Part shown: in pieces, positions 669 through 35,147 of the stretch
Layout of the letters: each line of letters begins with the position of its first letter
Numbering within the stretch: the stretch's first letter is position 1
Assembly (NCBI RefSeq): GCF_028641065.1
Contig: NC_073401.1
Coordinates: 3,286,001 to 3,350,000 of the forward strand
Source of the DNA: Leucoraja erinacea
Taxonomy: Eukaryota
DNA length: 64,000 nucleotides
Reading direction: 5' to 3'
Position numbers and translations under genes: made by a program
Notes under the pieces: model-generated
Databases searched by the model: none
Told to the model about the DNA's origin: nothing
Seen by the model: only the letters and a program-made list of their open reading frames with translations

Positions 669-1478
669 AGGGAGGTTGCAGAGCAGTCAAGATCACGACC
701 CGTGACCCGTACTGTTGAAACGCTACGCCTTCTGGAGTACAAGCGATGAACGTCAGGTAAGCACTTACTATTGCTGCCAGTACAGTCTTACAGTCTGTCC
801 CAGCATCCGGACTCCACGCTGACTGATTCCATTCGTGGACCCAGGGCCACATGTGACTCTGGGTGGGTGGAGGGACCAGACTGTCCCCAACTCTGCTGCA
901 GCTGACGGGGACGTTGCCAGGTTTTTGTTCCCGTGTGTCCGCTGCCAGACCGGCAGCCCCGTTTCACCCAGCCTCGTGTGTGGCGCTGCCGACCCACAGC
1001 CCGTGACAGTGGGGCCACACAGGGGGAGCCGGGGGCGGGGGGGTCGTGGCGTGGCCGCAACAGCGCTGACCCCGGGGGGGGGGGGGGGGGGGGGGGGGGG
1101 GAGTGGGGGCTGTCCTGAGGGATGCGCACCTTCGGCCGCTTACACCTTGGTGCTCGGGTTCAGAGCAAAGATACTAAAGCATTTGGTTCAGAGCGTTCAG
1201 TCACCCTCCAGCAAGGACTTGCCCTAAATATGCCGGCACGCTGCTCTTTCGCAAGTCAGTGAGCAGCAGTGATTTTGGCGGTTCTCACTTACGGTTACCA
1301 CTATTTCCACAATTTGTTACAGCACAGAAATTGACCATTTTGGCGATTTTTAACAGGTACGAACGTTTGTGTGGCATGTGGTACTAGTGTATGCCGGAAG
1401 CTGCCTTGTACTCCAGAAGGATTGAGCTACTCCGTGCGTCACGCCCTTTGACCTGATGACCTTACGTGCAACCACCCT
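669..1478. mobile_element. Non-autonomous DNA transposon (AGGG...CCCT termini, AT TSD; ISL2EU/Harbinger-related)
   Basis: TIR AGGGAGGTTGCA / TGCAACCACCCT. It is inserted in the last Tc1 codons (AAA TAC TAA), which fixes the TSD as AT. Confidence 0.8.
1166..1185. mobile_element. P-like TIR-end mini insert (putative excision footprint), 20 bp
   Basis: GTTCAGAG|CAAAGATACTAAAGCATTTG|GTTCAGAG, perfect 8-bp duplication. Confidence 0.75.
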
Positions 1479-18845: not shown

Positions 18846-20465
18846 AACTAGTACTATCCCAGTCTACATCGTGCACAATATGAAAAACAAGCCCTCTCAG
18901 TAATGAAGTGGTATCAAAGTCAGGAAGGAATGGATCTGGAGTCCTCAACATTGCTATGAGCTTTAATAACAGCATCAGAATAAATGTGGGTAAAGGAACG
19001 CTCTGATGTTTACCGCCTACTGCTCTCATTCAGTTAATGTCAGTGATCCATTTCAGAAGATGCACTAAGAGTGGCATGGGCAGCGTATACCATTGGTTCA
19101 GGAGCTTCAAAATCTATCTCAGTAGCACCATGAATAACCAAGCCCAGAAATAAAGCTGCCATGGAGACACAAAAGGGACTGAAGATGCTGAAATCCTGTG
19201 CAACAATCAAACTGCTGGAGGAACTCAGAAATCAAGCAGCATCTGTGGAAGGAAATGGACAGACAATGTTTCAGGTCTGGACTGTTCTTCAGACTGAAGT
19301 GTCCAAACCCAAAAGGCCACCTCTCCATTTCCCTCCACAGATGCTACCTGACGTGCCAAGTTCTTCCAGCAGTATGTTTTATGATATAGCTGCCATACTG
19401 TTCTTAAGATTGTGAATCCATATTATTTAAAAATTGATTTGACATCTTTCCATTCTATGATTAGTGTTTTTCCCAAGACAGTAATGTACTTGACCCGTGT
19501 ACTTTTTGCTACATTTCATTATTACAAATATAACAATTGAAATCACGACCAATTTGGATGATGGAACAGCAAATATTATCAGGCAATGGGAGCACATGCA
19601 GTATCCATAATAAATTATTCTGACCTAAATAAAGTACTGATTGAGACCAGTAAAGGATGACCTGATCCCAAATATGTTTTCACAAAATATACACTAGATC
19701 AGAATCTAATCATACCTATCGTCAGGTCACATCATCTTTAGATCAATTATCCAAACTTCAATGAGGATTCATATGCAACACAATCACTGTGCGAAACAGG
19801 ATAGATTCAGAAAATATAAAAAATGGGTATCCACAAGACACTAAAGGCAAATAACAGAATAATTACAAGTCATGTGAACATGAATATGTGTTGAGATGTC
19901 ATGGCCAATATCCCTTCCTTAGCTCACAATATTAAAAGAACTGACCTTTCATAGAATTACAATATGTTCCTGCTGCAAGCATACTGGTTGCATTATTTGT
20001 AATACATTATTTTCAAAACGCTGTAGATTTATATTCCTAAAAACAATTCGAGTATGTGGAAAATTCAGGTTAAACATAGTGTACCATTCCAGGTACTTTA
20101 TTTGTTCTAGTATGTTCAAGTATGGAGACCAAGGACTGGCTTTAAAGACCATCACCGCCTACCAACAAACAACCCCACGGAGATGGACTGTGGGAATGCG
20201 TGTCCTTGCAATACCACACCAAGATTTGGTTCGATGGGATGCAATTATTCAATTGTTTACTGATGTGTGCAAAGCTATTCAACATCCTCGGCCTTCTACC
20301 CTGGAGTGACTACAACCCGCAGAAATACACAAACGTACAGCCAGACCATTGAAATATGGCGTGTAAATTAATCAATGAGAAACAGAGGTGACTTTTAAAG
20401 AGTTTGTCCAGTCTCGTAGCCGTAGCTGCTGGGTATTCGACATCTATGGCCCACTGTCCAAGCAG

Positions 20466-20590
20466 CGCCGGGGGAGCCTGTCTCCCCGGTCCCAGCCGGT
20501 CCCAGCCCGCCGGGGGAGCCTGTGTCCCCGTTCCCAGCCGGTCCCAGCCCGCCGGGGGAGCCTGTCTCCGTCTCCCCGGCCCAGCCCGCC
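20466..20590. repeat. 42-bp GC-rich minisatellite (~2.8 copies) at the start of SUDS3 intron 1
   Basis: Unit CGCCGGGGGAGCCTGTCTCCCCGGTCCCAGCCGGTCCCAGCC starting at 20466, 20508 and 20550. Confidence 0.85.
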
Positions 20591-20661: not shown

Positions 20662-20773
20662 CTTCATCCGAGTCACGGCAACGGACGCTGCGCTCGTCCT
20701 CGTCGTCCACGCTATCCAGCTCCTCCTCGTCGTTGTAATAGTCCACAATGGGCGAGAGGAGAGCGGCGGACAT
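20662..20773 (-). CDS. SUDS3: Sin3 histone deacetylase corepressor complex component SDS3, coding exon 1
   Basis: MSAALLSPIVDYYNDEEELDSVDDEDERSVRCRDSDE matches the vertebrate SUDS3 N-terminus (human ...[34 protein letters not shown]). 112 nt ending GAAG|GTGATT (phase-1 donor), in a CpG island. Downstream exons were not found in the window. Confidence 0.9.
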
Positions 20774-21122
20774 CTTACCCCCCTCTCCTCCCCCTATCCC
20801 CCCTCTCCCCTCACACCCTCCCCCTATCCTGGCGCTCTCTCCCTCCCCCTATCCTATCCTCCCTCCCTCCTCCCTCTCTCCCTCCCGCCCGCCCGGCCGA
20901 CCGGCGCTCTGCCTGCGGGGGCCTTGCGCTTAAACCGCCCACACAATCCGCCACCGTCGCCGCCGCCCGGTGACTACACGAGGAGCACCACAGCCGGTCA
21001 CCCCCGGCGACGAGCAGCAATCGGCGTCCGAGCGAGACGGAGATGGGAAATGGCCATCAGGCAGTGATGGGGACAGCTCTCCCGGGTCCTCGCGGCGCAG
21101 TGTGGCAATAGGCCCTTCAGCC

Positions 21123-21142
21123 CAAAGATGATAGAAGCGGAA
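21123..21142. mobile_element. One-sided P-like TIR remnant (putative footprint), 20 bp
   Basis: CTTCAGCC|CAAAGATGATAGAAGCGGAA|CTTCGGCC (7/8 TSD); removing it restores the common repeat motif AGGCCCTTCGGCCCAAC. Confidence 0.7.
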
Positions 21143-21198
21143 CTTCGGCCCAACTTGCCCACAGCGGCCAACAATGTCCCAGCTACACTAGTCCCACC

Positions 21199-21231
21199 CA
21201 AATATACTAGAGCAAGAGTCTACGATCTTTG
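21199..21231. mobile_element. P-like TIR-end mini insert (putative excision footprint), 33 bp
   Basis: GTCCCACC|CAAATATACTAGAGCAAGAGTCTACGATCTTTG|GTCCCACC, perfect 8-bp TSD. Confidence 0.82.
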
Positions 21232-22873
21232 GTCCCACCTGCCATATCCCTCCAAACCTGTTCTATCCATGTACCTGTCTAACTATTTCTTAAACATTGG
21301 GATAGTTCCTGCCTCAACTACCTCCTCTGGCAGCTTGTTCCATACACCCACCGCCCTTTGGGTGAAAAAGTTACCCCTTGGGTTCCTGTTAAATCTTTTC
21401 CCCTTCACCTATGTCCTATGACCTATGTCCTCTGGTTCTCTATTCCACTACTCTAGGCAAGAGACTCTGTGCATATACCTGATCTATTCCTCTCATCATT
21501 GTATACACATCATCCTCTTGTGCTTCAAGGAATGGAGACCCAGCCTATTCTGCCTCTCCCTATAGCTCAGACCTTCGAGTCCTGGCAACATCCTCGTAAA
21601 TCTTCTCTGTACCCTTTCCAACTTGACACCAGTCCCAGTCCTGGGATCTTTCCAATTCATGCTGACATTCTACACTGAGCTATTACCCTCCCTATATGAG
21701 AGACAAAATGTCATGTCAATCACGAAACAACTTAATTCTATCTCCTAATTAATGCAACAGTTCACATAATCTTGTAACTTTTATAACCCCTGTGGCGGAT
21801 GACATCAAAGACTGATCAGTCTGAAGGGTCCCGACTCAAAACGTTGTATGTCTATTCCCTCCACAGATAAAAACACAAAGTGTGTAGAAAGGAACTGCAG
21901 ATGTTGGATTACACTGAGGATAGATACAAAAAGCTGGAGTAACTCAGCAGGATAGGCAGCATCTCTGGATAAAATGAATTTGTGGCGTTTCGAGACTGGA
22001 GGCTAATGCCTTCTGAAGAGCGGTCTCAACCCGAAATGTCACCTATCCTCTCCAGAGATGCTGCCTGGCCCATTAAATTACTAAAGACTCAAATTGATTG
22101 AGTAACTCAACGCAGGCAGGACCTCCGGAGATAAGTGATGTTTTGAGTCAGGACCCTTCTTCAGATGGTATTAGCCTCCACAGATGCTGCCTGACCTGCT
22201 TTGTTCCAGAGCAGAAAAAAAACATTGATTTTTTTTTGCTCAAGATTCCAACAGCTGCAGTCTCTCCCTCTCTCTCTCTCACATAGTAACATAGAAAATA
22301 GGCGCAGGAGTAGGCCATTAGGCCCATCGAACCCATTCAATATGATCACTCTCTTAATGAATTATTTTCCAATGTCATAGGTCCAAAATGTCTCTCACTT
22401 GACCTGCTGAATGTTTTACTATTTTGATTATTTTATGATGTTTTCATTTCAGATTTTTTACAAATCACAATAAAAGATCGAGATGAGTACGTTTCCCCAG
22501 TTTACTTAAGTTTTTAAAGTTACCAGTTAAAGCCAAGCTGTCTGCTTATTAGCACAAAGGAATACGTGCCTCCCACTGCTTAAAAAGTGTACATACCAAC
22601 GTTAAAGTTAATTCTGACAAATCCTAGTGCAAACCAAGTTAACTATTTTAACATCTTCCAAATAGCGTAGCATACTTTGCATTTAAAAGACCATCCTGGT
22701 TATTTTGTAGTGGCTGAAGGAGCTTAACAGTGACGGCAATAATATGACCCCCGTCCACAAATTGTGGAGTGGACGGTCCATCCACGACATTGGATTGTCC
22801 TATTTTCTATTATGCATGCACAAGAAAATGCAACTGCACTTAGGAAGTTTAAAAATGACGCAATGGTCAAAAG

Positions 22874-26161: not shown

Positions 26162-26262
26162 CAAAGATTATAGAGGAGCAAGATAGACCACTCCTCGAAA
26201 AACGCGTAGTATGACGTGTGTGATTGTCGACGCCATTATTTGAGGCATTTTGTTGGGCTGTC

Positions 26263-26372
26263 ATGGCGTCCTTATCTAAATGTTCATCTCACTGCTCTGC
26301 TATCAACTGTTCTAATCGTAAATCTAAACGACCAGAGCTGTCATTCTTTAGGTTCCCCGATAAAAAAGAAAG
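26263..26372 (+). CDS. THAP zinc-finger N-terminal exon of a transposase (remnant)
   Basis: MASLSKCSSHCSAINCSNRKSKRPELSFFRFPDKKER|GTAAG: C-x4-C ... FFRFP THAP signature, Kozak-like GTCATGG, canonical donor. Too short for the ORF track. Confidence 0.82.
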
Positions 26373-26711
26373 GTAAGAAAATATTATTATTATTTTTTGT
26401 CGATATTCTGTCGTGAAAATTTTATTTTCTGTTCTCCCATCAACGGCCATTGGGAAACTAGGTTTGTCGGTACATTAGAAAGTTATTAGACTTATTTTTA
26501 TTAGATCTTTACTTACCACAATAATAAAGACAAGTTTAACACTTCTGTACGTTTTTGGTTTTGTTCTTGTAAGGGATTGGTCTCCAAAATATGGCCCGCG
26601 GGGCACATTAGGCCCAGTGACCAGGAGATTTTTTGAGCTCAGACTCGAGTCCGAGAACGCGGCGGCTGTTACCCATTATATCCCTCGAATTGTCGTGAAG
26701 AAGGGTGCAAT

Positions 26712-26744
26712 CAAAGATTATACAACTCAGCTCTATCATCTTTG
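26712..26744. mobile_element. P-like footprint, 33 bp, nested in the P-like element
   Basis: GGTGCAAT|CAAAGATTATACAACTCAGCTCTATCATCTTTG|GGTGCAAT, perfect TSD. Confidence 0.82.
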
Positions 26745-26787
26745 GGTGCAATGGTGGGCCGGGGGGTTCAGTGGCGGCGGCCGCATT

Positions 26788-26823
26788 CAAAGATACTAGA
26801 GTAGCTCTGCTCTATAATCTTTG
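26788..26823. mobile_element. P-like footprint, 36 bp
   Basis: CAAAGATACTAGAGTAGCTCTGCTCTATAATCTTTG; flanks GCCGCATT/GTCGGAAT match at only 5/8. Confidence 0.6.
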
Positions 26824-27397
26824 GTCGGAATGGGACGGCTGAACGTTATAACATGCTATCGTTCCACCCTCCCTCTCCCCCCTTCTCCCTCCTCCCCCTT
26901 CTCCCTCTCCCCTCTCGATCCCTCTCCCTTCTCTCGATCCCTCTCTCCCCTCTCTTCCCTCGATCCCTCTCTCCCCTCTCTTCTCTCGATGATCTTTGTA
27001 AGAAGATTTTAATAAACTCTTCTACATTTAAGGTAAATTGACATATGAGGCAAAAAGCATCGTCAATATACAGGTCTCTCCACACAACTGAAAACAATTG
27101 CACTTAAGTGATATGTCATCCATTGTGCAGGCATGTAGTTATGATAATTTCTCTCTATATTTAAATTGTCTCTTTTTTTTATCAACAACAAAGAGATATA
27201 AAAACGCAGTGAGCAGCAACAAGAGGCACAGCAAGAAAGAATTATACTCATCTTTGACATTTAAAATGTTGTTATATTTTAAGAAATTTTAAACTTTAAT
27301 AAATCATTTTTCCACTTTTCATGCCTGCGTGTTCTTCATCACAATGGGAACCTAATGGGCAGGAATGGATACTCTGTGGGAGTATCTTGCTTCTGCC

Positions 27398-27414
27398 CAA
27401 AGATAGGATCTTCG
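27398..27414. mobile_element. Short P-like footprint, 17 bp
   Basis: CTTCTGCC|CAAAGATAGGATCTTCG|CTTCGGCC (7/8 TSD). Confidence 0.55.
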
Positions 27415-27456
27415 CTTCGGCCTCTGCACTCGTATCCACAGATCCTATAGCGGGAC

Positions 27457-28262
27457 AAACATAGAAACATAGAAAATAGATGCAGGAGGAGCCAATTTGG
27501 CCCTTCAAGCTAGCACCGCCATTCATTGTGATCGTGGGTGATCGTCCCCTATCAATAACCCGTGCCTGCCTTCTCCCCATATCCCTTGACTTCACTAGCC
27601 CCTAGAGCTCTATCTAACTCTCTGTTAAATCCATCCAGTGACTAGGCCTCCACTGCCCTCTGTGGCAGGGAATTCCATAAATTCACACATTTCTCTGGGT
27701 GAAAAAGTTTCTTCTCACCTCAGTCTTAAATTACCTGCCCTTTATTCTAAGACTGTGGCCCCTGGTTCTGGACTCACCCAACATTGGGAACATTTCTCCT
27801 GCATCTAGCTTGTCCAGTCCTTTAATAATTTAATATGTTTCTATAAGATTCCCCCTCATCCTTCTAAACTCCAGTGAATACAAGCCTAGTCTTTTCAATC
27901 TGTACTCGTATACAGTCCCACCAACCCAGGGATCAATCTCGTGAAACCTACGCTGCAGAAGAACCTCTTCACTCTATACTGAAATCCTCTTGTTATGAAG
28001 GTCAACATTCCATAGCTTTCTTTACTGCCTGCTGTACCTCTAAGCCAACTTTCAGTGGCCGGTGTACAAGGACGCCCAGGTCTCGCTGCACATCCCCCTT
28101 ACCTAACCTAACTCTATTGAGATAATAATCAGCCCCCTTGTTTTTGCCTTCAAAGTGGATAACCTCACATTTATCTATAGTATACTGCACATGCCATGCA
28201 TCTGCCCACTCACTCAACCTGTCCAGGTCACCCTGCAACCTCCTAACATGCCCTCTTATGTT
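27457..28262 (-). mobile_element. CR1 3' fragment nested in the P-like element
   Basis: LQGDLDRLSEWADAW..., CATAGAAA tail. Confidence 0.88.
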
Positions 28263-29466
28263 CATTGTGTGAAATTGTGATTTGTTAACTGCACAAAACT
28301 AATGCAAATGGCGATTTATTTATTATTGTATCTATGTTGGACATTTTGCTCTTTGGTGAAGCAGGGGTGGGGCTATCATTGTGTTACATACGTTAAATTG
28401 TACATCACTTTCACTGGTTAGCTGATATGCTGAACACTGCAATCCTGTATAACTCGCGCACAGAATAATGTGAATTGTGTAAATCTTATCCCAACGGGTC
28501 CCACTTAGTCTATTGATTGTGTATAAGCTGCAAATTTTGTCCTTTGTTTGAAATGTGTAGAATTTGACATCACTTTTATTGATTATCTGATATTCTAAAT
28601 TCTGCAAGCCTGTATATGTCGTGCACAAAATGATGTAAATAAAAATTGTTTTCCTTGTTTAAGAAGTTCAATTGAGAATTATTTGAAATTGTGGGAGTTG
28701 GTACAAAATACTGTTGACCCACAAATGTGTTGATATGAGACATTCACGTTTAAAAAATCCATGTCTCAAAAAAAGCAAGAAGGTGCCCGTGTTATTTGAC
28801 CAACTTGCCAGCTGAATTTAAATATACACAATACACAATACAATTTATTTGTCACTTGAACCTCATAGAGGTTGTTGGAGCCCCCGGCGTGCGCTAGCAA
28901 AGTGTCGCAGCCGTTTAAGCCACGCCGGGCGATGATGTAAGGCCCCGCTCCAGGTCATCCTCGACCCCGCTACTCGGGCGGAGGAATTCGCCGTTGTGGA
29001 AGCCCCGAAAAGCGGTCTCCAAGCAGGGACCCGCAGGCTCCGATATTACTGTCTGCCAGGCCTGCGGTTGGAGCCTCCGAATCTCCGGGGCTCGGGTCAC
29101 AGCAGCGCATGGGTACATATGTAGGTATGTATGCATTAGTTTTGCTCCTAATTCCCTTTTCCAAATCATTAATATATATGGTAAACAGTTGCAGCCCCAA
29201 CACCAAGCCTTGCGGCAAAAAAATCCAGAAGATTAGTCAAACATGATTTCCCTTTCATAAATCCATGTTGACTTGGACAGATCCTTTTACTGCTATCCAA
29301 ATGCCCCATTATTGCATGTTTAATAATTGACTCCAGCATCTTTCACACCACCAAAGTTGGGCTAACTGGTCTGTAATTTCCCGTTTTCTCTCACGCTCCT
29401 TTCTTGAAAAGTGGGATAGCATTAGCTATCCTCCAATCCACAGGAGCTGATCGTAAATCTATTGAT

Positions 29467-29618
29467 NNNNNNNNNNNNNNNNNNNNNNNNNNNNNNNNNN
29501 NNNNNNNNNNNNNNNNNNNNNNNNNNNNNNNNNNNNNNNNNNNNNNNNNNNNNNNNNNNNNNNNNNNNNNNNNNNNNNNNNNNNNNNNNNNNNNNNNNNN
29601 NNNNNNNNNNNNNNNNNN
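29467..29618. other. Assembly gap (N run), flanked by (TA/TG)n microsatellite
   Basis: 152 N. Confidence 1.
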
Positions 29619-30015
29619 TATGTGCATTTGTATGTGTGCATATGTATGTGTATGTGTGTATATATGTGTGTGTATAAATATATATATATGCATATATTTA
29701 TTATTACTATATAATTATATATATAATTGCCTTTATGGTTTATGTACATCATCTTACAAGACAAATAAATTAATAGTGATGATTTAAATCAAAGTTGCTT
29801 CTGATACATGAGAATAAACTTTATTATCTCTAACTTGCCTCTCACACACAGACACACATTCATATAAATATATTAAATATATATACGTTAAATTTAATTT
29901 TGTGCAGTGTGTGTTAAAGCAATACAAGGGAAACTGCACAATGCAATGCAAGGGAAAACACGCAAAGGAGGAGGCTGTTACCGCTACAAGATACTCGAGG
30001 ATCTTTGATTTGGAT

Positions 30016-30046
30016 CAAAGATTATAGCGGAACTCTATAATCTTTG
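30016..30046. mobile_element. P-like footprint, 31 bp, near the right end of the P-like element
   Basis: ATTTGGAT|CAAAGATTATAGCGGAACTCTATAATCTTTG|CTTTGGAT (7/8 TSD); preceded by another TIR-end remnant at ~29987-30007. Confidence 0.75.
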
Positions 30047-30832
30047 CTTTGGATCTCAGCGGGTGGCAAACCGGAAGTCGCGTGTCGCATTAAGAAATGG
30101 CGGCCGTGACGTTCCGTCACGTACTACACGTCAGCCCAGTGAATTTCGGAAGAGTGGTCTATCTTGCTCCTCTAGGATCTTTGCTTACAATTCCTTAGTT
30201 ATATCCATACTGACTTCACATCTCCTGTTTCAATGTCACCCCTTGCAAGGGACTGAACTTCATTCCTCACCAACAGAGCTACCCCACCCCCTCATTATGG
30301 AAGTTTAAAAGCGAAGGGTCATAGCGCCCACAGTAAAGTGTAACAAATGTGGGACCTGAATGTGGAATCACTTTCTTGTCTCGAGCAAATGAGGTAAACA
30401 CCTTTTTTAAAGGCGTTTCTAAATATTCCAATTTGTTGGGGCGTCAGAAGACAGACAATGCAAGGAGTCCAAGAAAGAAATTGCCATACCTCCTACCCAT
30501 GGCTGACACCCTCCTTCCTTCCTTCAGAATCTCAAACATTTTTTGCCTGGATCAATCTTAGTTTAAACACAAAAAGCAGGAGTAACTCAGTGGCACAGGC
30601 AGCATCTCTGGAGAGAACGAATAGATGACGTTTCGGGTCGAGACCCTTCTTCGGACAACCTTAGTATATTTTGTTTGAGGCCCATTATATTTAATTCATT
30701 TGCTTTTGCACTAATTTTCACAATTATGTATCATTTATCGCTCCGGACCACACCAGAGGCAGCGGCTCACCTTTTTTTCTCAACTTTCTCCCCACCTTCT
30801 ACAATTAGTCTGAATTGCACATTACAACCTAG

Positions 30833-33800
30833 TGAAGTGGCACCTGCTGGGGCCTTGGGGTAGTCAAACCCTCGGATTGGCTACCCCAGTCACATGGGTG
30901 CGGGAAGGAGGTTTTGCGCGCTTTTGATTAAGCCCATTCATTCGGAGCACCACCACCATCGTTGATTTAGCCGTCTCACAGACTCGTGTTGTTTGTTTAA
31001 CCGTTTGAAATAAAGTTAGTTAAATCAACTCACAGTCTCGACTCCACTAAACTGGTGACCCCGACGCGCCCAATCGTTATTGGACGCCGACATGCAAGCC
31101 GCTGCCATTCCCGACGGTGTTCCCCATGCTCAACAGAGCGCCGTCGGCCTCAAGCTGCCGATGTTCTGGCCCGAACAGCCTCAGATGTGGTTCGCCCACG
31201 TGGCGGCACAATTCCACCTTCGTAACATAGTGGTGGACGATACGAAGTACTTCCACGTCGTCAGAGCACTCACGCAGGAGACGGCTTCACTGTTACTGCC
31301 TTTCCTGCAATACCCGCCGGCGATCGCTAAGTACGAAGGCCTCAAAACCCTCCTTCTTCACACTTTCAGGCTCAGCCACCGGGACCGCGCCGCCTGCCTC
31401 CTGCACATGGACGGGTTGGACGATCGCAAGCCGTCCGTGCTGATGGCAGAAATGCTTGCTCTCATGGACGGCCACCGTCCGTGACTGCTTTTTGAACAGA
31501 CCTTCTTGGAGCAGATGCAGGACGACGTCTGCCTTATGCTCGCTGGCGCTGATTTCACCGACCCCCTGCAGCTCGCCGAACGGGCTGACGAACTTTGGCT
31601 GGCGAAACAACAAGATGGCGGTGCCATCAACCAAGTTTCCATGCCAGCACGCCATTCGCATCGGCGTGACCGCGACGATGCCCCGCCCACGGCTTCCACC
31701 GCAGAGCCATGGCAGCGCGCCGTAACCCAGGGTAAGCACAAATGGTGCTTCTATCATCCCCGCATGGGGGCGCTGAAGTGCTACGCTGCCGTCAACCCTG
31801 CTCGTTTCAGGGAAATGCTTCGGCCGATCGTCTGCAGAGGCAATCACGATCGGCCCAAACAACCGCCTCTACGTCCGCGACCATCGCTGTAGCAGACGCT
31901 TCCTCGTCGACTACGGGGCTATAGTCAGTATCCTCCCGCCGACCGGACGCGACACCCATACTGGTAAGCGGGGCCCAGTGCTCTCGGCCATCAATTGGAG
32001 CACCATCCGTACTTACGGCACGTGGACCCTCTCGCTTACGTTCGACTCCCGCCCGTATGAGTGGACGTTCATCGTGGCCGACATCGCTCAGCCGCTCCTG
32101 CGTGCCGACTTCCTGCGTACGTCCTCCCTCGTCGTTGATGTGCGGGGCGGGCGCATGACTTCGTGATCAGCCCTTGGCTCCCTGATCCTGCGGCCCCCCG
32201 CCCCCACCCAGCACACAGCTCAGTGTCGTCGCCGAGGTTGATGGCCCCTACGCCTCCTTACTCACCGACTTCCCTGAGCTCCTCACTCTCTGTTTCAACG
32301 GGGCAGCCCCCAAACATGGGGTCGTGCATCACATGCCCAATGTGGGCCCTCCAGTATGTGTCCTGGCGCTCCTTCTGCCACCGGACAAGCTGCGCATTGC
32401 CCGGAACGAGTTCCAGCTAATGGAGCACATGGGGATTGTCCGGCGCTCGGACAGCCCTTGGGCATCCCCACTGCACATGGTTCTCAAAGCATCTAGTGGG
32501 TGGAGACCATGCGGGGATTACCGGCGTCTGAACGCCATGTCCACAGCAGACCGCTACCAGGTGCCCCACATTCAAGACTTTTCTGCACACCTCGAGGTTG
32601 CTGCTTTCTTCTCGAAAGTCGACCTCATCCGGCGCTATAATCAAATCCCCGTTCACCCGGACGACGTCCCTAAAACTGCGACAATCGCCCCGTTCAGCTT
32701 GTTCCAGTGGCTCAGTGTGCCTTTTGGATTAAAGAACGCCGTGCAGGCATTCCAGTGGCTTATGGACCAGGTCAGGCGGGGTCTGCCGTTTGTATTTATC
32801 TACCTGGACGACATTCTGGTTGCCAGCCCCACACAGGATGAGCATATCGCCCACCTACAGACCCTTTTCCAGCACCTCCTCGAGCACAGCCTCATCATCA
32901 ACCTCGCTAACTGCCAGTTCGGCCTCTGTTCCATCTCCTTTCTGGGGCACAGCATCACACCCCAGGGCGCTGCCCCGCTACCCTCAAAGGTCGAGGCCAT
33001 TCGGCAGTTTCCCCGGCCACACACTGTGAAGGGGTCGCAGAGGTTTGTCGGCATGGTGAATTTTTATCACCGTTTCGTGCCGGCAGCTGCCAACATCATG
33101 CGCCCCCTGTTCCAGTGCCTGGCAGGCAAGCCGTGGGAGTTTGAATGGTCCTCAGAGGCGGATGCGGCATTCGAGAGTGCTACCATACGCTACCATGTTG
33201 GCCCACCCACGGGCCTCCGCCCCCACGGTTCTCACCGGATGACTGGACACAGCTGTGGGCGGCGTCCTGGAGCAGTCCGTGGTCGGACGCTGGCCTTTTT
33301 TTGCAGTCAACTACGCGCCCCTGAGCGCAACTACAGCGCCTTGGACTACGAGCACCTGGCGTTGTACCTGGCCATCATACACTTTCGATATTTCCTGGAG
33401 GGCCGGGTACTCACTGCCTTTACGGACCACAAACCCCTTACCTTCGCCTTGGGTAAGATCTCCAACCCGTGGTCTGCCCGCCAGCAGCGGCACCTCACCT
33501 ACATATTGGAGTTTACCACAAACGTCCAGCAGGCAAACTTAGCACCGTTGACGACGTCTTGTTCCTGCCCTTCCCTCCGTTTCGGGTGCGGACACATGGA
33601 TGGTGGACTGCTGCACGGCTGTTTCTGCATGGATGGCGGACAGCTGCACGGCTGTTTCTGCCCTCTAGTTGGGCGATGTCCCATGTGGAGCTGCGGGCAC
33701 CGTGGTCCTTTGCGATGTCTCGCCCCCATCGTCCCCACCAGTTGGCGTCGCCACGTTATCGGTTCCATCCGCGGACTGGCCCATCCATCCATACGGGCGA

Positions 33801-34881
33801 CCTCTGAACTGGTGGCGGCCAAGTTCATATGGCACGGGCTCCGCAAGCAGGTGGCGGCCTGGGCACGTGCCTGCATCCCCTGCCAGACCTCCAAGGTCCA
33901 GCGGCACTTGCACCCTCCGGTGCAGGAGTTCGACGTTCCCGTGGACTGGTTTCTTCATGTCCATTTTGACCTGATGGGCCAATTGCTGCGGCGCATCTAC
34001 TCACTATCGTGGACCGTTTTACGCGGTGTGGCCAGAGGCGATCTCGCTCTCGGACACCTCCGCCACGGCTTGTGCTCGGGCCCTGTCGGCCAACTGGATT
34101 GCCCGGCTCGGGGTTCTGTCCGATATTTCCACTGACACAGTTCACCTCTGCCTTATGGTCTTCCCTCGTCCAGCTCTGCGGGACACAGTTACACCATACC
34201 ACCGCCTACCACCCATAGGCCAATGGACTGGTCGAACGTTTTCACAGACACCTTAAATCAGCGCTGAAGGCTCACCTGTCCGGACTGGTTGGACCAGTTA
34301 CCGAGGGTACTCCTCGGTATCTGCACCGCCCCCAAAGTAGACTTGGCAGCTTCCTCTGCCGAGCTGGTGTACGTCTCGGCCCTGCGGGTGCCCGGGGATT
34401 TTCTCCACGCCACCCCCGGGCAGGTGGACTCCGCCCCGGCGTTGCTGGCGAGCATCCGGGAGCTGTGAGCGGGCTAGCTGCTGTGCCTATTTCGCAGCAT
34501 GGTTTGCCTGTAGTTCATGTGCCGTCGGCTTTGCAGAATCGTGCTTATGTTTTTATTTGCAGGGACGCCCACCGCTCTCCCTTGCAGCGGGTCTACGAGG
34601 TGCTGTTCCGGGTGCTGCGATCCGGCGTCGCCACCTTCACCTTGGACGTGGACAGCCCAGTAGTGGTCACACTGCCCCGACGTAGAGGTCGTCCGCCGGC
34701 CGTTCCAGCTGCACCAGTTGTGCCTGTTACCCCCGACCCAGTTGTTCCTGTTCTTTCCACCCCGTTGCCCGTTCCTGGCCCTGTTCAGCTGGTCCAGAGT
34801 GTTACGCCCGCCGCGCCTCCGCTGACCACGCGTTCTGGTCGTTGCCTCCGGGTCCCTGCTCGGTTCCATACCTCGGGTTCT

Positions 34882-34924
<43 letters not shown>

Positions 34925-35147
34925 CGGGATCCTGTAATGGGGTAGTCGAACCCTCGGATTGGCTATCCCAGTCACGTGGGTGCGGGGAGGAGGTTTTGCG
35001 CGCTTTTGATTGAGCCCATTCATTCGGAGCACCACCCTTGTGGTAGCAACATCGTTTATTTAGCCGTCTCACAGACTCACGTTGTTCTTTGTTTAACCGT
35101 TTGCAATAAAGCTCGTTAAATCAACTCACGGTCTCGACTCCACTGAA
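30833..35147 (+). mobile_element. Gypsy/Ty3 LTR retrotransposon, full-length but frameshifted
   Basis: TSD CTAG on both sides; 5' LTR 30833-31051; PBS TGGTGACCCCGACG (tRNA-Trp) 31053-31066; gag (KLPMFWPEQPQMWF); protease; RT (SPWASPLHMV, WRPCGDYRRLN, YLDDIL); RNase H (TDHKPL); integrase (H..AHP...C..CQ, TAYHP..NG.VERFH); poly-G PPT; 3' LTR 34933-35147. Confidence 0.95.

Follow-up and report, generated by a model that had tools for sequence, protein, structure and literature searches.

Two probable P-element excision scars beside the SUDS3 start of Leucoraja erinacea and a sampled enrichment of such scars near CpG islands

Two short inserts resembling P-element ends lie upstream of the SUDS3 start in the window, the whole stretch of 64,000 nucleotides of Leucoraja erinacea DNA analysed here. 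Are they excision scars of a transposon, and did the promoter attract that transposon? To our knowledge, what is known of promoter and origin targeting and of the long staggered cut comes from a single P element, that of the fly, and the described vertebrate P homologues that we know of are domesticated or integrate poorly. The locus is made of the following features:

20662..20800, minus strand: exon 1 of SUDS3 with an approximate 5' limit (ATG at 20773, donor at 20662), located in a CpG island
21098..21630, minus strand: decayed LINE 3' end hosting both inserts, which decodes as the ORF2 C-terminus
21123..21142, plus strand: scar 1, 20 bp, very probably a one-armed P-element excision scar whose other arm was lost
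21115-21122 and 21143-21150, no strand: target duplication of scar 1, 8 bp, 7/8 identical
21199..21231, plus strand: scar 2, 33 bp, two arms head-to-head (20+13 nt)
21191-21198 and 21232-21239, no strand: target duplication of scar 2, exact 8 bp, a recurrent target within the host repeat
1166..1185, plus strand: additional scar of the window, 20 bp, with an exact 8-bp target duplication

The inserts announced by the original prediction at 21123-21142 and 21199-21231 were confirmed, each with an 8-bp target duplication (TSD). Scar 1 is flanked by CTTCAGCC on one side and CTTCGGCC on the other, a 7/8 match, while scar 2, a member of an end subfamily recurring at other loci, is bounded by two exact copies of GTCCCACC. 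Their starts are separated by 76 bp within a joint span of 109 bp, and they lie 350 and 458 bp from the SUDS3-like ATG (20773, minus strand), bearing out the distance of ~350-460 bp upstream given originally. This position is ~320-430 bp past the observed RNA 5' end, at the outer edge of the CpG island; the stretch from 20662 to ~20800 is covered by RNA, namely contig X17 and raw reads X23, both spliced at the 20662 donor. The identity of the gene comes from a genome search, in which an exon ~48 kb downstream on the same strand hits the Sds3 Pfam domain above cut-off (E=0.003); none of the 56 ORFs of the window matched this domain. The scars are probably neutral for SUDS3. Intron 1 of the gene contains a GC-rich tandem repeat at 20450-20590, where run X1 skips 93 bases. 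The 60 kb of C25 flanking the window hold no further TIR-arm match, hence the scar richness of the window is local.

Both inserts interrupt a LINE that we take to be a CR1. Among the 40 best-scored of 945 candidates, the locus itself is the only full-length match (146 bases). Reading of 30 repeat loci revealed 26 without both inserts and 3 with a different scar at site 2. Site 1 is filled in 4 copies, the locus included, versus 36,110 empty ones, and site 2 is filled in 22 places, several of them in non-island DNA. The site 1 counts and the 26 loci empty at both sites put the inserts outside the CR1 subfamily consensus, as had been supposed. The uninterrupted copy reported near 60310-60380 holds for site 2, where the MAFFT alignment with 60290-60630 leaves a 29-column gap, but not for site 1, which is misaligned. 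Segment 60290-60630 was discarded as empty reference given this misplacement of site 1 by MAFFT and the better empty copies available among the genome matches.

In organism A, scar 1 is found in two runs belonging to separate studies; organism C has it too, and organism B shows it as far as base 21140. Organisms B and C both have a C at 21130, as does the family end. Contigs spanning scar 1 reach 30 letters beyond it, the bridging rule being 31 letters. Run X11 bridges scar 2, and in X1 overlapping contigs cover it. The check for presence/absence polymorphism proposed at the outset gave no empty allele among the matches listed, which is weak evidence against such polymorphism.

A P transposon resides in the same window:

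26162..30183, plus strand: non-autonomous P element of 4 kb with the same ends as the scars, a 32-bp TIR (30/32) and an exact 8-bp TSD
26263-26372, within 26162..30183: THAP-like exon 1 of this element

The element aligns with transposase loci at up to 97%. Its 36-aa THAP exon, the first exon being the only query, hits PF05485 with E=5e-4 and 21.3 bits, below the cut-off of 23.9. The 773-aa frame of locus L037 carries PF12017, PF21787, PF21788 and PF21789, all above cut-off, and has Drosophila P transposase as its sole PDB match (E=1e-42). The architecture of P transposases, with HTH, split RNase H and GTP-binding insertion domain, was thus recovered. Six open P-transposase frames of 772-773 aa are all found on small unplaced contigs (L018-L023), which suggests recent activity or a cluster. 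P superfamily elements end in the terminal motif CANRG; CAAAG ends adjoin transposase frames in L037, L042, L044, L045 and L054, one end being seen per locus. No complete autonomous copy, with both ends and TSD, was found within the 10-kb stretches around transposase loci. Exact ends of one type number 593 genome-wide and the TSD is 8 bp long in 18 of 21 paired intact elements. The match of the inserts to ends that flank P transposase frames supports the P superfamily as their source, in line with the P-like identity first assigned to them, and both are very probably genuine P-element excision scars.

The interior of the window element has passenger scars at 26712-26744, 26788-26823, 27398 and 30016-30046. 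These are copied in many family members, including transposase-coding ones (L037-L042), and inflate raw scar counts. The family also has short MITE-like members, L116 and L228, of ~390 bp and with an end variant of 19 nt. A further group of P-transposase loci (L046-L049, L053, L055) lacks scar-type ends within 5 kb and is possibly another subfamily with different TIRs, and the long frames without ends of L036 and L043 may be domesticated copies.

The head-to-head end pattern is found at 732 exact sites compared to 0 for the reversed pattern, showing that it is not due to chance. A looser pattern gave 5,386 strand matches; 64 distinct sites among the first 100 lead to an estimate of ~3,400 sites, passengers included. 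Junction classes were scored by eye at the first 50 of 272 sites. Joining through the terminal GC (2-bp overlap) accounts for 31 of these, several being passenger copies, followed by blunt junctions of 18+18 or 20+20 (5), a 2-bp slip (5), trimmed junctions (4), other inserts (3) and a 1-bp overlap (2), and none of the 50 runs on into the next TIR bases. Arm length has a sharp limit at an internal GAGC/AAGC, and TIR variants with 18, 19 or 20 bases up to this motif give scars of corresponding length. The joins imply overhangs of 18 and 20 nt, not the fly-like value of exactly 17 nt; overhangs of 18-20 nt with a nick fixed to the internal GAGC landmark would be the simplest reading of the junctions. 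At L089:1500-1560 and L116:1500-1940 the end of a new element comes immediately after a scar and uses its duplicated target, a re-insertion at the old site. Scars of L002, L263 and L007/L009/L256/L259 have non-matching flanks and are possibly rearrangements or deletions between two ends. An 8-bp TSD with at most one mismatch is present in 63 of 66 scars, whose target consensus is the palindrome G-T-Y-N-N-R-A-C, and the target motif is palindromic over 14 bp. In the available part of PMC2577343 the Drosophila P element has the target core ATRGTCCGGACWAT, which resembles the scar palindrome.

The distribution of scars relative to CpG islands was sampled with one scar type, of which all 66 exact copies of 34 bp were taken. 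From these, 1 scar without TSD and 6 with flanks duplicated in another locus were left out, and the remaining 59 were compared to 189 control points in 63 stretches, mostly 700 kb away. Repeats were masked by all-versus-all BLAST of ~1.5-1.9 Mb of DNA, and some of the islands counted as unique may be mid-copy repeats. A non-repeat CpG island lies within 500 bp of 28/59 scars and 16/189 controls (p=3e-10). Strict island thresholds give 14/59 versus 7/189, central control points alone are near such an island in 4/63 cases, and 29/59 scars have none within 1 kb. A second set, from C1, retained scars with at most 1 TSD mismatch (14 of 42 removed; the 28 kept still hold a few passengers). An island is near 9/28 of them (p=0.0014) or, unfiltered, 11/42 (p=0.003); against C1-only controls (3/36) the p value is 0.023 with loose and 0.09 with strict thresholds. 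Many scar-adjacent islands resemble gene starts by eye. ATG-to-donor candidates are found near 14/59 scars versus 3/189 controls; in most cases the scar precedes the ATG by 200-800 bp. Two islands were verified as coding starts in the PDB, ARL8 at 269 bp from the scar and MAPKAPK2/3 at 669 bp. Of 259 island ORFs, none was assigned to a Pfam family above cut-off. The uniform distribution that was to speak against the original prediction is therefore not what this sample shows: the enrichment of scars at gene starts with CpG islands is about 5-fold and exceeds target-motif effects. This enrichment likely reflects a fly-like promoter preference.

Could the target sequence alone explain the doublet, the CR1 tail carrying good P targets? 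When the emptied LINE tail is scored with the motif, the scar 2 site ranks 1 and the scar 1 site 5 of 452, and site 2 was also hit outside islands, as seen above. However, filled rates of ~1e-4 at site 1 and <1e-3 at site 2 mean that a double hit is not to be expected if sequence were the only factor. Nor is the island enrichment predicted by the motif: weighting control positions by it raises the expected island share from 6.6% to 7.4% only. As the only cause, we regard this explanation, to which we give hardly any credit, as refuted; what it does account for is which base pair was hit inside the region. At SUDS3 the promoter seems to have determined the region and the sequence the exact base pair. 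A rather improbable, though more serious, alternative is that insertion was near-uniform and that elements in open chromatin were excised and end-joined more often, crowding scars at promoters. The intact elements speak in its favour. In the outer flanks of the first 70 of 593 ends, on C1-C2, 4/70 ends are near non-repeat islands versus 20/402 control sides, which is no enrichment, and scar sides, with 25/118, are above the intact ends (p=0.006; 10/68 for scar sides of C1-2, p=0.096). Flank CpG density of intact ends equals that of controls (p=0.44). The promoter bias of insertion put forward originally is thus visible in both scar sets but not in intact ends, whose background level implies that the pattern is shaped by selective removal of large insertions from promoters or by excision that is easier at promoters. 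Excision bias nevertheless leaves unexplained that intact and scar sides of C1 pooled are still up about 2-fold, at a borderline level (10/95 versus 20/402, p=0.054), and that scars cluster. Within 1 kb of the 59 sites there are 12 further scars, where the control density of 5 scars in 624 kb predicts 0.95 and a reversed-sequence control gave 2 matches, and neighbouring scars often belong to different subfamilies. This clustering is denser even than that of scars and element ends together in controls (8 in 624 kb), which argues that insertion was also biased. Second scars occur at 8/30 island and 2/29 non-island sites (p=0.08). A neighbour within 120 bp is found for 3/59 scars versus 0.11 expected, so that doublets like the one at SUDS3 recur and the SUDS3 pair, one example of a genome-wide scar pattern, is ordinary.

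The doublet could also have arisen from one element that hopped locally, over the 76 bp between two good targets, in one chain of events. This is unlikely, yet the best placed of the alternatives: the arm of scar 1, with its C at 21130, has 15 nt in common with the right-hand arm of the scar 2 subfamily, and P elements are known for local hopping, at 50-150 kb in the part of PMC7776569 available. Scar 1 fits another end type too, however, with one insertion and one substitution, and the mixture of subfamilies among neighbouring scars elsewhere does not favour a single hopping element. A local hop would leave the genome-wide enrichment unexplained and is compatible with the best explanation. 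We give very little weight to the view that the inserts are not scars but extreme internal-deletion derivatives or tiny mobile MITEs. The inserts do have TIR arms and TSD, and in a dedicated search for run-on arms 19 of 72 matches listed extend beyond the point where arms usually end, an outcome expected of aborted gap repair. Those 19 nonetheless represent <1% of the ~3,400 sites, and arm length stops sharply at one position. Furthermore, junctions differ per locus, with templated insertions like those of fly donor-site products in the accessible text of PMC2895639, one-armed forms exist, and identical flanks recur only as passengers in other repeats.

We favour, with a probability of about 0.7, the explanation that elements with a likely preference for the open flanks of CpG-island promoters inserted next to the SUDS3 start and were later excised, intact copies being lost from promoters. 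The transposase would pick a region of open promoter chromatin, a cause that the observed enrichment suggests, and within it the best palindromic target, here in the CR1 tail according to the site statistics, generating the 8-bp duplication seen at the scars. A staggered-cut excision, to which the junction classes point, would keep ~18-20 nt of each end on the chromosome as 3' overhangs. Microhomology end joining with trimming could then yield the 20+13-nt scar and the one-armed 20-nt scar. Kilobase insertions in promoters would be purged or excised and scars of 20-40 bp tolerated, which is consistent with the contrast between intact ends and scars, so that scars, not intact elements, would mark promoters. 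A broader proposal is made tentatively, at slightly below even odds. The family may be a vertebrate P transposon that was mobile until recently and is possibly still competent, with a second-strand nick placed by GAGC and 18/19/20-nt overhangs that track TIR indels. The ~3,400 fixed scars could record, like a fossil map, where promoters were open or replication origins lay in the germline, intact copies having been purged from those sites.

Compared to the Drosophila melanogaster P element, as described in the available parts of the sources cited, the skate family shares the transposase domains, a THAP first exon (THAP-like here), a TIR of ~31-32 bp and an 8-bp TSD (PMC7776569; PMC2895639; PMC2577343). 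A palindromic GT..AC target core and promoter-proximal enrichment, here of scars, are also common to both (PMC7776569; PMC2577343), as are donor-site end-joining products with long TIR arms kept, microhomology and templated insertions (PMC2895639). The skate family differs in TIR sequence and in its arms of 18, 19 or 20 nt according to TIR variant, the fly overhang being 17 nt (PMC7776569), as well as in the thousands of scars fixed in a vertebrate genome and in intact copies that are not promoter-enriched. Zebrafish Pdre2 / zfTHAP9, in the sections of PMC10983969 and PMC7776569 at hand, is likewise vertebrate P-like with an 8-bp TSD and internally deleted copies, but has 13-bp TIRs, ~50 copies and an enzyme that excises but did not integrate, whereas the skate family counts 593 exact ends of one type and six open frames of 772-773 aa. 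Overhang length, a footprint census and promoter bias are not among the results reported in those sections on Pdre2. Repeats are LINE-dominated in PMC10115646, whose available part does not mention P elements. The literature search, with Repbase/Dfam, subscription journals and supplements outside its scope, brought up no paper describing P-element scars, or a promoter bias of such scars, for cartilaginous fish; those sources may already list the family.

Thousands of natural scars make it possible to test in a vertebrate the choice of P targets by promoters or origins, and the comparison of scars with intact copies provides a gauge of the strength of selection against promoter insertions. They also render the positioning of the internal nick testable, with the intact-looking transposase frames offering the enzyme. 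Elsewhere in the window, the 4 kb at 31000-35000 have ~60% GC and a high CpG ratio, and are possibly a retroelement or a long island.
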